From the IMG/VR virus record IMGVR_UViG_3300047552_000145, positions 1 through 64,000 of that record: a stretch of DNA of 64,000 nucleotides; one strand, given 5' to 3'. The DNA is from a virus. Shown here piece by piece: positions 6,968 to 13,994 of the stretch. Each line of letters starts with the position of its first letter. Position 1 is the first letter of the stretch. The translations under genes were made by a program, and so were the position numbers. The notes beneath the pieces are model-generated. The model was not told where the DNA came from and did no database searches. It saw only the letters and a list, made by a program, of their open reading frames with translations.

Positions 6968-7620
6968 TGAAGACATTTATACATCATGATTTTGCGAAAT
7001 TAGAGAGGGATACTTTTGCTGACGGGCGACGTGTTTACGTTACACCTGAAGGTAAAAAGTATCCTTCAGTCACATCCATCACTGGAGTTAATAGCACATT
7101 TAACAAGAGTGCTTGGATTCAACGTGTTGGTGTGGATGAAGCAAATAGAATTACTCAGCGAGCACTTGACCGTGGTACTCGCATTCACTCGTTCTGTGAA
7201 AATTTCTTACTTGGTAATGAAGTAAAGATTGATATGTTCGATCAAGATATGTGGAGCACAATGCTACCTCTCTTGAATAAGATCGACAATATCCACTGCC
7301 TTGAAACACCACTATATTCTGACTTCTTGCAAGCAGCTGGTACAGTTGACTGTATTGCCGAGTATGAAGGTAAGTTATCCGTCATCGACTTTAAAACTTC
7401 TTCGAGAGTAAAAGAGCGCAATGATATTCATAACTACTTTGAACAGACTGCGGCTTATGCTGTTATGTTTGAAGAACGTACAGGTATTCCAATTGGTCGT
7501 TTAATTATCTTGATGGTGATTGATGACGACGCACCAAGAGTATTCATTGAAAAGCGTGATGGTTGGATTGCAGGTTTCCGTAAGTCTAGAATGGACTACA
7601 GGCAGAAGTATGGAGTATAA
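6967..7620 (+). CDS. PD-(D/E)XK exonuclease (T4-like, Cas4/RecB fold)
   Basis: YPSVTSI, RGTRIH, AGTVDCIAEY, IDFKTS, Q..AYA.MFEE. Confidence 0.85.
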   Translation: MKTFIHHDFAKLERDTFADGRRVYVTPEGKKYPSVTSITGVNSTFNKSAWIQRVGVDEANRITQRALDRGTRIHSFCENFLLGNEVKIDMFDQDMWSTMLPLLNKIDNIHCLETPLYSDFLQAAGTVDCIAEYEGKLSVIDFKTSSRVKERNDIHNYFEQTAAYAVMFEERTGIPIGRLIILMVIDDDAPRVFIEKRDGWIAGFRKSRMDYRQKYGV

Positions 7621-8164
7621 GAAAAACGAGTGGTGGGTTACTCCAGTTTGGGAGATTGACACTGGTCTTTCTTCAGACTATAATGCTCGCTTACTCTATG
7701 ATTTAAAGACTTTTGGAAAGAAGTCTTACAACATATGGAATGAAGATATTCCCTCACTTGGACCATTGAAAGCCAAGGTTATTGAAGCGTTGAGTAATAC
7801 AGTCAAGGATTATTTCCCCGATTATTATCCTTACAATCCAGTCATCTATAATGGTTGGGTGCAGTTTCATAAAACTGGCGAGATGCTTCACGTTCATGAC
7901 CATGGTGGTGTAATCGTCGCTTGTGTCTATTATGTTAAGGCACCAGAGGACAGCGGGGATCTTTTATTAATAGATCCTAGAGGAAGCGTTAATTGGGACT
8001 GGGAAACTGATGGGATTGATGGTGCCAAATATAAACGTGTTAAACCGAAAGAAGGTAAATTGGTTATCTTCCCAGGATATGTTATGCACGCAGTAGATCC
8101 GAACAACTCTAAAGATGAGCGGGTCAGTATCGCCATAAATATTCATAACCATATAAATACTTGA
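7610..8164 (+). CDS. 2OG-Fe(II) oxygenase-like (TIGR02466-type cupin)
   Basis: Start at ATG7610 (MEYKKNEWWVTPVW); HVHDH, VYYV, DPR, FPGYVMHAV, RVSIA motifs. Confidence 0.85.
   Translation: MEYKKNEWWVTPVWEIDTGLSSDYNARLLYDLKTFGKKSYNIWNEDIPSLGPLKAKVIEALSNTVKDYFPDYYPYNPVIYNGWVQFHKTGEMLHVHDHGGVIVACVYYVKAPEDSGDLLLIDPRGSVNWDWETDGIDGAKYKRVKPKEGKLVIFPGYVMHAVDPNNSKDERVSIAINIHNHINT
8152..8159 (+). promoter_or_regulatory. T4-type late (gp55) promoter
   Basis: Exact TATAAATA about 28 nt upstream of the Cys-rich peptide gene; SD GAGG before ATG8187. Confidence 0.7.
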
Positions 8165-8186
8165 GATATACATCAAAGAGGTCAAC

Positions 8187-11851: not shown

Positions 11852-13347
11852 TGGCTAATTGTGTTATATTATCGGGTGGTACATGGAGTCCGGATGGATG
11901 GTGTACAGTTAAGAGGTCTCTTGGACCATATCGCCTAGCATCATCTCTAGAAGACCATGGTTATTCGTCATTTATTCTAGACTATGTTGAAAACTTTACA
12001 ACTGAAGAAGTCATCAAAGCCTTAGATAAGCACATTGGCGAAGATACTATTTGGTTCGGCTTTTCTTCTACGTTTTTCTGGTTGAAACAAACTCAACAAA
12101 CAAACGCCAGAACAGGTAGCGATGAGTTGAATGAGATGTATTATGATAATTATGATGAAGTCAAAAAGGTTATCGACTTTGTAAAAAGTAAAGGTGTTAA
12201 GATCCTTTATGGTGGATCAAAAGCACCATACTTTTCTCTGAATGATGTTGATTCCAGTATTGACTATTATGTTACTGGTAATGCTGATAACTCAATCATT
12301 GATATTACGAATTACCTTGCTGGTAAAGTAGATTCTATTCAGCATTTGAACGATCGTACTATTGATTCCACAAAATATCCAGAACCTGATGTAAAGAATA
12401 TTCCAACACGCTGGTGGAATCATAATATTATGTGGGGTGAGGGTTTACCTCTTGAACTATCGCGTGGTTGTATTTTTAAATGTAAGTTTTGTGATTTTCC
12501 ACTAACTGGCAAGAAGAAAGGTACATACCTCCGAGACCCTGAACAGATTAAAGATGAAATGATTAAGACGTGGGAAGCTCATGGTACTGATTCATACTTC
12601 TTCACCGACGATACTTTCAACGACGATAATGATAAACTGGAAGCCTTGCATAAAGTGTTTACCAGCTTACCATTCAAACCTAAATTCGCATCATATCTTA
12701 GAATTGATCTGATTAACAAATATCCACACCAAGCAGACTTACTATCTGAAATGGGTTTGGTTGGAACATTCTTTGGTATTGAAACTCTTCAACCTGACTC
12801 AGCAAAAGCTATTGGTAAAGGTTTACACCCAAACAAAGTTAAAGATCGTTTATACTGGTTGAGAGAACAGTGGAAGAATACAGTAAACATTGAAGCTGGT
12901 TTTATCCTCGGTTTACCATATGATACACTGTCATACTTCAACGATTTGTTAATGTGGACGTTGGAGAAAGATAATCCAATCCAGTGTATCAACTATTACC
13001 CTTTGATGTTATTTTATTACAAAGATCATAAAGAGCTTCAACGTTATTCTTCTGAGTTTGCCTTGAACCCAGAAATTTATGGTTACACTTTTGACAATAG
13101 CATCTCCAGCTGGCAGTTGAAGTCTCAGAAGCTAAACTATAATATGTGCTTGGATATATCCAAGAAGTTTAGTGATTTAAGAAAACCTCTTAATCAAATT
13201 GCTGGGTTCTATACAATCACGAGTTTAAACACTGGCGTTCCACTTGAGGATATCTACACAATGACGCAAGTTGATATTCAAAAGAAATACAATATCCCCG
13301 AAATGAACGCTAACCGTGTTGCTGAATATAAGGGTATGGTTTTATGA
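11851..13347 (+). CDS. B12-binding-domain radical SAM protein (class B-like)
   Basis: N-terminal cobalamin-binding-like region (GPYRLASSL..., FGFSST, YGG); SRGCIFKCKFC; FTDDTFN; GIETL; FILGLP. Confidence 0.85.
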   Translation: MANCVILSGGTWSPDGWCTVKRSLGPYRLASSLEDHGYSSFILDYVENFTTEEVIKALDKHIGEDTIWFGFSSTFFWLKQTQQTNARTGSDELNEMYYDNYDEVKKVIDFVKSKGVKILYGGSKAPYFSLNDVDSSIDYYVTGNADNSIIDITNYLAGKVDSIQHLNDRTIDSTKYPEPDVKNIPTRWWNHNIMWGEGLPLELSRGCIFKCKFCDFPLTGKKKGTYLRDPEQIKDEMIKTWEAHGTDSYFFTDDTFNDDNDKLEALHKVFTSLPFKPKFASYLRIDLINKYPHQADLLSEMGLVGTFFGIETLQPDSAKAIGKGLHPNKVKDRLYWLREQWKNTVNIEAGFILGLPYDTLSYFNDLLMWTLEKDNPIQCINYYPLMLFYYKDHKELQRYSSEFALNPEIYGYTFDNSISSWQLKSQKLNYNMCLDISKKFSDLRKPLNQIAGFYTITSLNTGVPLEDIYTMTQVDIQKKYNIPEMNANRVAEYKGMVL

Positions 13348-13994
13348 TAGTTGAAAACATTTTTGGTTCACCTGTTGTTAGAGTTAAGTGTGAAGACACT
13401 AGCTTATGGCGCAATGAAACTCTTAACAACAGCATCGAGATGATGTATAAGTCACCAGTGGTTATTAACCGTGTGCGAAATCAAGTTGGTGATTCTCATT
13501 TCGGTGCTGGTATGACTACAGTTGGCCAACCATATCCACTAGTCACTCTCCCAGGAGTCAAAGGGTTAAGAGACTGGGTTAGACAAACATTACTCGATGC
13601 TAGACCAGCGCTTGGGTTTGAAGGTAAAGGTACTGATGTTCGCTTTAAAAGAAGCTGGACTAACCGACTACTCAAAGGTGGCTATGGTTTATGTCATAAT
13701 CATACAAAGATTGATAATTACATGGAAATGTCTGGGTATAGTTCTACAGATTTTAAACCAGATGTTGTTTCGATCTTCTATGCTGATGTGCCAGAAAACA
13801 GTTCCAACTTGGTATTCATAAAAGACGGTGCACCTGATACTAGGATTGAGGATTATCCAGCTGAAAGACAACATTGGTTACAACCTATCGAGGGTGAACT
13901 TGTAATGCATACACCTGAGGTCTGGCACGCTGTAAGTATGCATATGTCAGATATTCCAAGAAATGTTTTTGTTTTTGACATTGACTTCCAATAA
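13344..13994 (+). CDS. 2OG-Fe(II) oxygenase-like (TIGR02466-type)
   Basis: IFGSPV start, SWTN, CHNH, P.EGELV, WHAV, RNVFVFD. Confidence 0.8.
   Translation: MIVENIFGSPVVRVKCEDTSLWRNETLNNSIEMMYKSPVVINRVRNQVGDSHFGAGMTTVGQPYPLVTLPGVKGLRDWVRQTLLDARPALGFEGKGTDVRFKRSWTNRLLKGGYGLCHNHTKIDNYMEMSGYSSTDFKPDVVSIFYADVPENSSNLVFIKDGAPDTRIEDYPAERQHWLQPIEGELVMHTPEVWHAVSMHMSDIPRNVFVFDIDFQ

Follow-up and report, generated by a model that had tools for sequence, protein, structure and literature searches.

What does a virus do with a set of enzymes of the kind that modifies ribosomally synthesized peptides? This question is raised by a locus in the first 64 kb, here called the window, of IMGVR_UViG_3300047552_000145, an 81,266-bp viral contig from IMG/VR with a CheckV completeness of 51%. 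The source is a T4-like freshwater phage, and the sequencing runs that carry its genome comprise DNA only, from freshwater or aquatic metagenomes, with no RNA run listed. An earlier note, made from the letters of the sequence, had proposed a peptide-modification cluster at positions 7610-13994, and its seven co-directional genes are indeed present on the + strand, separated by gaps of at most 22 nt or by small overlaps (genes A to G, Table 1). Most of the family assignments made there also hold in Pfam, PHROG and NCBIfam scans: the run combines a small Cys- and Asn-rich protein (B) with a radical S-adenosylmethionine (rSAM) enzyme of the SPASM type (C), protein D, a halogenase (E), a further rSAM enzyme (F) and two 2-oxoglutarate (2OG) oxygenases (A and G). 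Considered as a whole, the region is probably a maturation cassette for a small virion adhesin.

Protein B and its radical SAM partner

A scan of viral contigs returned 128 loci with a relative of C, the best 80 of which (55-92% identity) were kept, and open reading frames (ORFs) were clustered across these and the window (81 loci). The rSAM enzyme is found in all 81 loci and a homologue of B in 78, where it is located directly beside the rSAM gene or one or two genes off, on either side; at the three loci that lack B (L028, L037 and L083), the contig ends next to the rSAM gene. In the earlier note, homologous enzymes without a Cys-rich neighbour were to count against the proposal, and apart from these contig ends none was found among the 81 loci. 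In several viral lineages, e.g. L063 and L068, the B-C pair directly follows fibre genes that end in an S74-type stretch. In L045, L049 and L050, a single rSAM gene is flanked by two to three B paralogues (277-397 residues), near very large structural genes.

The same arrangement extends to cultured phages and bacteria. A tblastn search with C against cultured phages returned 10 records only, one of them from Achromobacter phage JWF, in which the C homologue (44% identical) is encoded two genes after gp028, a tail-fibre protein (PHROG 4.8e-09) with a (N/D/S-C)6 run immediately before a self-cleaving Hint domain (Hom_end_hint 3e-12). In Ralstonia phage RSP15, the C homologue (45% identical) lies within the tail module. 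A profile scan of species-representative bacterial genomes yielded 204 loci, 80 of which were kept, mostly from Burkholderiales (e.g. Limnohabitans, Polynucleobacter, Paraburkholderia and Burkholderia paludis). Loci were treated as assessable when their upstream flank measured at least 4 kb, which applied to 53; the 27 with short flanks were left out. In 52 of these 53, an ORF on the same strand, no farther from the C relative than 5 kb on the upstream or 2.5 kb on the downstream side, contains at least three x-C repeats, and in 49 of the assessable loci the (xC)n run lies at most 12 residues from the C-terminus; of 42 control regions, chosen beyond 3 kb downstream at these loci, 1 contains such an ORF. 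When ten of the (xC)n-tailed bacterial proteins were scanned, five matched tail-fibre PHROGs (best E 5.3e-89), one gave a weak tail/structural match and four gave no match. To judge from these gene neighbours, the C enzyme family also serves tail fibres. The functional pairing of the Cys/Asn-rich ORF with the SPASM enzyme, as claimed in the earlier note, is upheld by the viral loci and by the analogous bacterial pairing, and B and C very probably work together.

C matches Radical_SAM (PF04055, 3.2e-07, 31.1 bits against a cut-off of 29.5), the SPASM model TIGR04085 (31.8 bits against 27) and phrog_1802 (4.2e-65). Its CxxxCxxC triad (C73, C77 and C80) is invariant across 13 aligned sequences, which places it among the radical SAM enzymes; the cysteines C316, C335, C375, C378, C384, C388 and C400, including a C-x2-C-x5-C-x3-C arrangement, are likewise invariant and establish SPASM membership. 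By sequence, C carries the expected cluster ligands, namely the rSAM triad of the SAM-binding 4Fe-4S cluster and the seven SPASM cysteines of two auxiliary 4Fe-4S clusters. Sequence matches in the Protein Data Bank (PDB) are 8vpo and CteB (5wgg). The equivalog models of NCBIfam all score below their cut-offs (bits/cut-off: PapB 79.9/340, CcpM 70.1/500, QhpD 61.8/453, anSME 53.5/349, SCIFF maturase 40.4/425), and the sequence evidence places C in a separate family, phrog_1802, outside the curated equivalogs. The best-scoring of these models, PapB (1.9e-22), geopeptide, CcpM and QhpD, describe thioether formers. Since the best matches, although below cut-off, are thioether-forming maturases, thioether cross-linking is the most likely reaction, and a thioether nature of the cross-links on B is modestly favoured.

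B comprises 128 residues, among them 18 Cys and 24 Asn, and consists of an N-terminal adaptor module (approximately residues 1-55) followed by an Asn/Cys-rich part (58-128) with a terminal Trp. Its 151 homologues, none of which bears a name, have in common a module of about 55 residues, a conserved Asn/Cys-rich core and a variable end, of which three types can be distinguished. Short forms of about 130 residues, like B of the window, often end in C-x-C-W; forms of about 220 residues run into the intramolecular chaperone Peptidase_S74, a self-cleaving trimerisation domain of tail fibres and spikes; and forms of about 300 residues carry an extra domain and a hydrophobic tail. Pfam detects Peptidase_S74 (PF13884) in the B homologues of L013 (1.2e-06) and L077 (1.7e-12), and many of the 151 homologues contain it as well; one S74-type form (P0009) is 77% identical to B of the window, which itself lacks a C-terminal PF13884 and has no Pfam match at all. 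In 15 of 19 S74-type forms, a Trp precedes the Ser of the S-D-x-x-L-K motif with which the S74 match starts, a Ser that we take to be the cleavage site. A terminal Trp is also present in 48 of the 101 other listed forms, and B of the window has one. From the Trp before the Ser and the Trp ends of the short forms, it follows that the C-terminus of the short B of the window corresponds to the one that self-cleavage would leave on the S74 forms.

The conserved C-terminal domain of the forms of about 300 residues (L018-L083, e.g. L018 12907-13809) spans about 170 residues, has no Pfam family and begins after the last N-C repeat; it has a hydrophobic end and occupies the place of the self-cleaving S74 and Hint domains. 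A tblastn search with B, which the low-complexity filter may have masked, gave no match, and the rest of the 81-kb contig contains no other ORF that is Cys-rich or shows the pattern of the N-terminal module.

An AlphaFold2 (AF2) model of B, built with 121 sequences, reaches a predicted local distance difference test (pLDDT) score of about 84 for residues 1-55 and of 76 for residues 91-100. When 1.84 billion cluster representatives were searched with a profile built from residues 1-55 (E <=0.001), the N-terminal module turned up on 527 of them, and in nearly all of the 150 listed it is N-terminal. Among 143 newly listed proteins, 80 are Cys- or Asn-Cys-rich and 63, many of them fragments, are not. 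A Pfam scan covering 10 of these 63 revealed F5/8 type C (6.6e-11) in P0264, PA14 (5.8e-14) together with GLEYA (2.5e-15) in P0243 and Fibrinogen_C (1.3e-05) in P0235, while F5/8 type C in P0277 and a phage tail collar domain in P0278 fell just under the Pfam cut-off; the remaining five had no Pfam match. A common module that heads swappable sugar-binding or adhesion domains is, as far as sequence families can tell, the pattern of fibre-attached adhesins. A fold search of B against BFVD returned a best E of 0.97, with a gp38-domain protein at E 7. The window protein at 55024-55689 was considered as a second bearer of the module and rejected (hhalign probability 0.55%).

The view of B as a classic leader-core precursor is not borne out: in this small protein, the N-terminal part forms a folded module that also occurs in lectin-type adhesins. 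B is most likely a late protein composed of this folded adaptor module and an Asn/Cys-rich distal part. In line with late expression, the box TATAAATA, which resembles a T4 late promoter, precedes B. The window contains it once as an exact copy, against a chance expectation of 4.25, and the count on its own therefore carries no weight; the box is kept at the same position in 7 of 8 aligned relatives, despite differing flanks and upstream genes. Of the 77 genes of the window, 13, most of them structural, have the word TAAATA within the 80 nt that precede them.

The halogenase, the accessory enzymes and the cassette types

E belongs to the Trp_halogenase family (PF04820, 1.7e-95, 321 bits against a cut-off of 21). 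The motifs GGGTAGW, ATYKRGIKF and GWVWRIP in its sequence presumably represent the flavin-binding GxGxxG, the catalytic Lys and WxWxIP. Its sequence matches in the PDB comprise BrvH, PrnA, RebH, VirX1 and others (E 1.5e-60 to 1e-39), and the solved Trp halogenases among them span 497-554 residues, compared to 396 in E; the shorter form might open the active site to a protein substrate. E-type halogenases (46-79% identical) are present in 14 of the 80 loci, and in 10 of these B ends in a Trp, while in the other four a Trp precedes the Ser of the S74 junction. In L008, B ends in Trp and the flank amounts to only 1.2 kb. Across 51 non-redundant assessable rows, in which L034 and L063 were scored as lacking an E-type halogenase, the enzyme and a terminal Trp in mature B occur together in 12 and are both absent in 39, with no discordant row.

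A second Trp-halogenase paralogue is encoded in the window at 60223-61845 (full length, 540 residues, Pfam 7.4e-109) and overlaps the end of a 415-residue ORF that has no Pfam family and is preceded, 20 nt upstream, by the word CATAAATA. The two genes (58979-61845) are located between the fibre genes and the neck genes and may constitute another fibre-linked modification pair.

Of the two oxygenases, A is clearly a 2OG-FeII_Oxy_5 protein (4.4e-20, 72.4 bits against a cut-off of 27; phrog_81 2.9e-32) and exceeds the TIGR02466 cut-off (65.3 against 62.5). For G, the corresponding values are 27.6 bits against 27 (marginal), phrog_81 1.8e-12 and, for TIGR02466, 18.5 against 62.5, below the cut-off; G is 90-91% identical in L004-L006. 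The library descriptions of PF13759 and TIGR02466 name no substrate for their members. F carries the Radical_SAM core (5.2e-16, 59.7 bits), and its best NCBIfam matches are B12-binding rSAM families, far below their cut-offs (TIGR04072 2e-18, PhpK family 2.2e-15); one of the NCBIfam alignments reaches residue 99, there is no Pfam B12-binding match at E <=0.01, and the comparison with TokK (0.0016) covers the core only.

D is predicted by AF2 to fold into two tandem alpha/beta domains (pLDDT 88.9). Fold searches led to nothing convincing (a designed peptide trap ranks highest with Z 5.0, proteins like type III secretion system chaperones reach Z 3.6-3.7, and the best Foldseek E is 0.018), so that the idea of a chaperone stays a guess, and the predicted complex of D with B scores 0.00, a control-free value that is given no weight either way. 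Close homologues of D number only 18. Its profile matches the ORFs located after the rSAM gene in L008-L017, L025 and L077 (hhalign probability 98.4%, E 6.4e-15), by which the D-like gene can be assigned to the cassette type of the window, where a member of the family always comes after the rSAM gene; according to the cluster maps, it is present in 17 of the 81 loci.

The frequency of the other clusters varies among the 81 loci: 2OG oxygenases occur in 59, Asp/Asn-hydroxylase-like proteins (c3) in 44, B12-type rSAM enzymes in 26 and halogenases in 17. The island that holds them sits between backbone genes, with c6, c8 and PhoH on one side and the exonuclease on the other, and comes in types. 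The type of the window has the order [2OG]-B-rSAM-D-like-[2OG]-halogenase-[B12 rSAM]-[2OG], whereas a second type is arranged as rSAM-[fatty-acid-desaturase-like]-B(300 aa)-small ORFs-2OG-Asp/Asn beta-hydroxylase family-[B12 rSAM], optional genes being bracketed. The Asp/Asn beta-hydroxylase family enzymes of other cassette types (Pfam 2.6e-10 and 2.6e-12) are encoded beside an Asn-rich protein, and Asn hydroxylases in this position fit B as a substrate. Since the oxygenase, halogenase and D-like genes accompany B and C into unrelated genomic contexts (L013-L017 and L025), they can be regarded as a functional unit. Among the sister cassettes (L018 11440-12896; L068 12781-13902), rSAM and B are in some cases separated by one or two membrane proteins that resemble fatty-acid desaturases (Pfam 1.6e-12), and another cassette encodes a weakly matching PP-loop/Asn-synthase-like ATPase (Pfam 0.0015).

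Genomic context of the cassette

The complete run from A to G is repeated in L004-L006 at 72-96% identity and, without A, in L007, from which it follows that the gene arrangement is not due to chance. A megablast search of the whole region against cultured phages gave no match. Upstream of the cassette lie genes for PhoH and a PD-(D/E)XK exonuclease, and the start codon of A overlaps the latter, 11 nt ahead of its stop codon; the flanking genes are of the T4 replication type (PhoH, PD-(D/E)XK exonuclease, Clp protease, gp59 and gp32). Among A to G and these flanking genes, the Pfam and NCBIfam scans detected no peptidase, transporter or immunity family, in agreement with the earlier observation that the cassette contains neither a transporter nor a dedicated leader peptidase.

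Table 1. Genes of the cassette and the promoter-like box, with positions in the window.
Feature	Description	Positions	Strand	Family scans or remark
A	2OG-Fe(II) oxygenase, PF13759/TIGR02466 type	7610-8164	+	Pfam, PHROG, NCBIfam
TATAAATA box	T4-late-promoter-like	8152-8159	+	27 nt upstream of the B start codon
B	128-residue candidate substrate protein	8187-8573	+	No Pfam, PHROG or NCBIfam family
C	Radical SAM/SPASM enzyme, presumed maturase of B	8589-10031	+	Pfam, phrog_1802, TIGR04085
D	208-residue acidic protein, pI 4.75	10032-10658	+	No Pfam, PHROG or NCBIfam family
E	Compact 396-residue flavin-dependent halogenase, Trp-halogenase family	10661-11851	+	Pfam
F	Radical SAM enzyme, putative relative of class B (B12-dependent) methyltransferases	11851-13347	+	Pfam; NCBIfam below cut-off
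G	Second 2OG-Fe(II) oxygenase, PF13759 type, marginal	13344-13994	+	Pfam

Directly after the cassette, ARAGORN identifies a permuted (two-piece) tmRNA at 13989-14393 with the tag ANDEVFALAA; two-piece tmRNAs are known in phages from Melnitz-like marine phages, as described in PMC9004378. Behind a cell-wall hydrolase gene, at 1.8 kb downstream from the cassette, lies a Clp protease gene (15777-16337, Pfam 7.5e-28). High-identity copies of the Clp gene are found only in L004-L007, as part of their shared backbone, and it is for this reason not considered linked to the cassette. The fibre module of the window (47944-58493) contains three proteins assigned to Gly_rich_2 by Pfam (52831-54237, 55697-57127 and 57132-58493).

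Proposed function, known systems and competing explanations

Direct observation covers the gene families, the pairing of B with C, the make-up of the cassette, the exchange of domains and the box upstream of B, and we infer from them a course of maturation that would end in the virion. C would cross-link the Cys-rich part of B, most probably by thioethers between Cys sulfur and carbon, and D would assist, where a role as chaperone or scaffold is a guess. The compact halogenase E would halogenate the C-terminal Trp of B. Going by family names only, the B12-type enzyme F would add a methyl group and A and G would hydroxylate side chains, for which Asn is the obvious candidate. The result would be a cross-linked knob at the fibre end, serving host binding or tip stability. 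The product of B is probably a virion adhesin or a part of the fibre tip, to judge from the domains of its homologues. A virion product, one of the two alternatives favoured in the earlier note, fits the S74-bearing homologues, the lectin-heading N-terminal module, the tail-fibre partners of the enzyme family and the box upstream of B.

Among known systems, quinohemoprotein amine dehydrogenase (QHNDH) provides an instructive parallel: a SPASM rSAM enzyme cross-links its small Cys-containing subunit (QhpD and QhpC), and a flavoprotein (QhpG) modifies a Trp of the same subunit. C matches the QhpD model TIGR03906 (4.5e-17) and E the QhpG model NF049967 (7.6e-11), but both remain far below the cut-offs (41.6/240 for the latter), no dehydrogenase context is present here, and E is a much better Trp_halogenase that keeps the halogenase-type motifs. 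Fibres with Peptidase_S74 are comparable in that close homologues of B and two fibre genes of the window (47944-49167 and 54570-55022, with S74-like C-termini read from their sequences) end in this domain, whereas B of the window lacks it and stops where the S74 forms carry the Ser of S-D-x-x-L-K.

Three further systems can be compared by their published descriptions. In Methanococcus voltae, CrpC forms ranthionine thioethers on the Cys-rich protein CrpA, at several of its Cys motifs close to the C-terminal end (Dieter et al., 2026; PMC13692751). As in the present locus, the neighbour of the SPASM rSAM gene specifies a Cys-rich protein and not a short peptide; the system is archaeal and cellular, its description includes no virion context, halogenase, B12-type rSAM or 2OG oxygenase, and the CrpA acceptor motifs (CAGM, CAVD and CPLV) are different ones. 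The streptococcal ranthipeptide enzyme NxxcB links Cys sulfur to the beta-carbon of Asn in NxxcA (review, PMC9389541), and B is dominated by Asn-Cys and N-x-x-C spacings, by analogy with which Asn might conceivably act as the cross-link acceptor in B. As described, however, NxxcA is a short secreted peptide with a leader, and the NxxcB family is not among the NCBIfam models matched here. SrpI, which brominates the C-terminal Trp of a ribosomal peptide under the guidance of an N-terminal leader (PMC10286304), resembles E in its proposed target, again on the basis of the description. By its sequence families, the system works like SPASM maturation of proteins or peptides and lies outside any curated equivalog. 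With no leader peptidase or exporter and with a reusable folded N-terminal module, it falls outside the strict definition of peptides that are made by the ribosome and modified after translation (RiPPs). No description of a radical-SAM modification of a phage fibre or structural protein was found in full-text literature searches, and in one study a cyanophage rSAM maturase is termed an 'antibiotic synthesis gene' (PMC12801897). Novel features of the present system are its presumed target, which would be a virion adhesin or the tip of a fibre, and the combination with a halogenase, a B12-type rSAM enzyme and oxygenases.

Several observations weigh against a virion adhesin matured by all of these enzymes. 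The cassette lies among replication genes, approximately 34 kb away from the fibre genes. AF2 leaves two Cys-rich stretches of B unfolded (pLDDT <50), and the only PDB chain that resembles its N-terminal module at Z >=2 is the attachment domain of S16 gp38 (6f45_D), a very weak match (Z 2.3, root-mean-square deviation 2.1, 42 residues). C stays under the cut-off of every NCBIfam equivalog, and homology does not allow a reaction to be assigned to it; G is only a marginal member of its family. F is present or absent between near-identical B sequences, e.g. L009 and L011, and its changes without any change in B leave no basis for naming its target. When counted on a quick tree, the link between E and the terminal Trp amounts to one independent contrast (supported branches) or two (all branches), each trait changing twice, so that the pattern is suggestive and not significant. 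Moreover, L034 (12495-13682) and L063 (12468-13634) encode divergent Trp_halogenase-family proteins (5.2e-27 and 6.9e-15) beside a B that does not end in Trp; these proteins lack a WxWxIP-like motif, the neighbouring B ends in N-C repeats, and they may be monooxygenases rather than halogenases.

These points bear on three competing explanations. With its Cys-rich ORF, SPASM enzyme and tailoring enzymes, the cassette has the architecture of rSAM RiPP clusters, and B could be a RiPP-like product outside the virion, intracellular or released at lysis (e.g. against competitors or host defences), with its N-terminal part as leader; the distance to the fibre genes and the nearby Clp gene would suit this. 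Such a product is improbable, as there is no transporter, immunity gene or cassette-linked peptidase (Clp being backbone), the would-be leader is folded and, as a module, precedes lectin-type domains as well, close homologues of B bear the S74 fibre chaperone, the enzyme family is otherwise found with tail fibres and the late-type box is kept upstream of B. A pairing of B and C with a chemistry other than thioether formation is given an equally low probability. Here, the (N-C)n repeats would be metal or Fe-S sites of a trimeric tip, comparable to the His-x-His iron sites of T4 gp37, and C would perform another SPASM reaction, such as formylglycine formation as in anSME, epimerisation or a C-C or C-O bond. 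This would agree with the matches of C to the anSME model (1.9e-14) and to cyclophane-forming SPASM models, all below cut-off, with the annotation of the JWF homologue as an anaerobic sulfatase-maturating enzyme, and with the alternating x-C repeats, which as read from the sequence would place all Cys on one strand face. Against it stand the thioether formers among the best NCBIfam models, weak evidence in view of the cut-offs, and the tested Cys-rich substrates beside SPASM enzymes, which are thioether substrates (PMC13692751 and PMC9389541).

Finally, some or all of A, E, F and G may have nothing to do with B and may be auxiliary metabolic genes that share a hypervariable island, acting on nucleotides or DNA, free tryptophan or host metabolites. 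The variation of island content between phages, the coming and going of F beside an unchanged B, the second halogenase of the window and the status of 2OG oxygenases and Trp halogenases as common phage accessory genes (phrog_81 and phrog_2928) speak for this explanation. It is nevertheless considered unlikely, given that B and C are accompanied in other genomic contexts by oxygenases, halogenase and D-like gene, that E follows the terminal Trp without discordance, that the free-Trp halogenases of solved structure matched by E exceed it by 100-150 residues, and that the Asp/Asn beta-hydroxylase family enzymes of sister cassettes fit an Asn-rich substrate. That every accessory enzyme acts on B is itself doubtful.

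In its most far-reaching form, the preferred interpretation, a maturation cassette for a virion adhesin, would have RiPP-type radical chemistry build a part of the phage particle. It is tentatively proposed that a swappable cassette produces a cross-linked, C-terminally halogenated, methylated and hydroxylated mini-adhesin that caps the fibre, so that host recognition or tip stability would depend on a post-translational chemistry which the fibre sequence by itself does not reveal, and that the same might apply to the (N-C)n-tailed fibres of many phages, prophages and perhaps tailocins. If this is true, the enzymatic cross-linking and halogenation of a receptor-binding part of the virion would represent a new layer of phage biology, and the prediction or engineering of host range from fibre sequence would miss a chemical determinant. 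The viral and bacterial loci, together with the N-terminal module representatives (128, 204 and 527, respectively), would supply SPASM enzymes, peptide halogenases and B12-type rSAM enzymes with many natural substrates of protein size, and a chemistry of the peptide-antibiotic type would have been put to use on a part of a virus.

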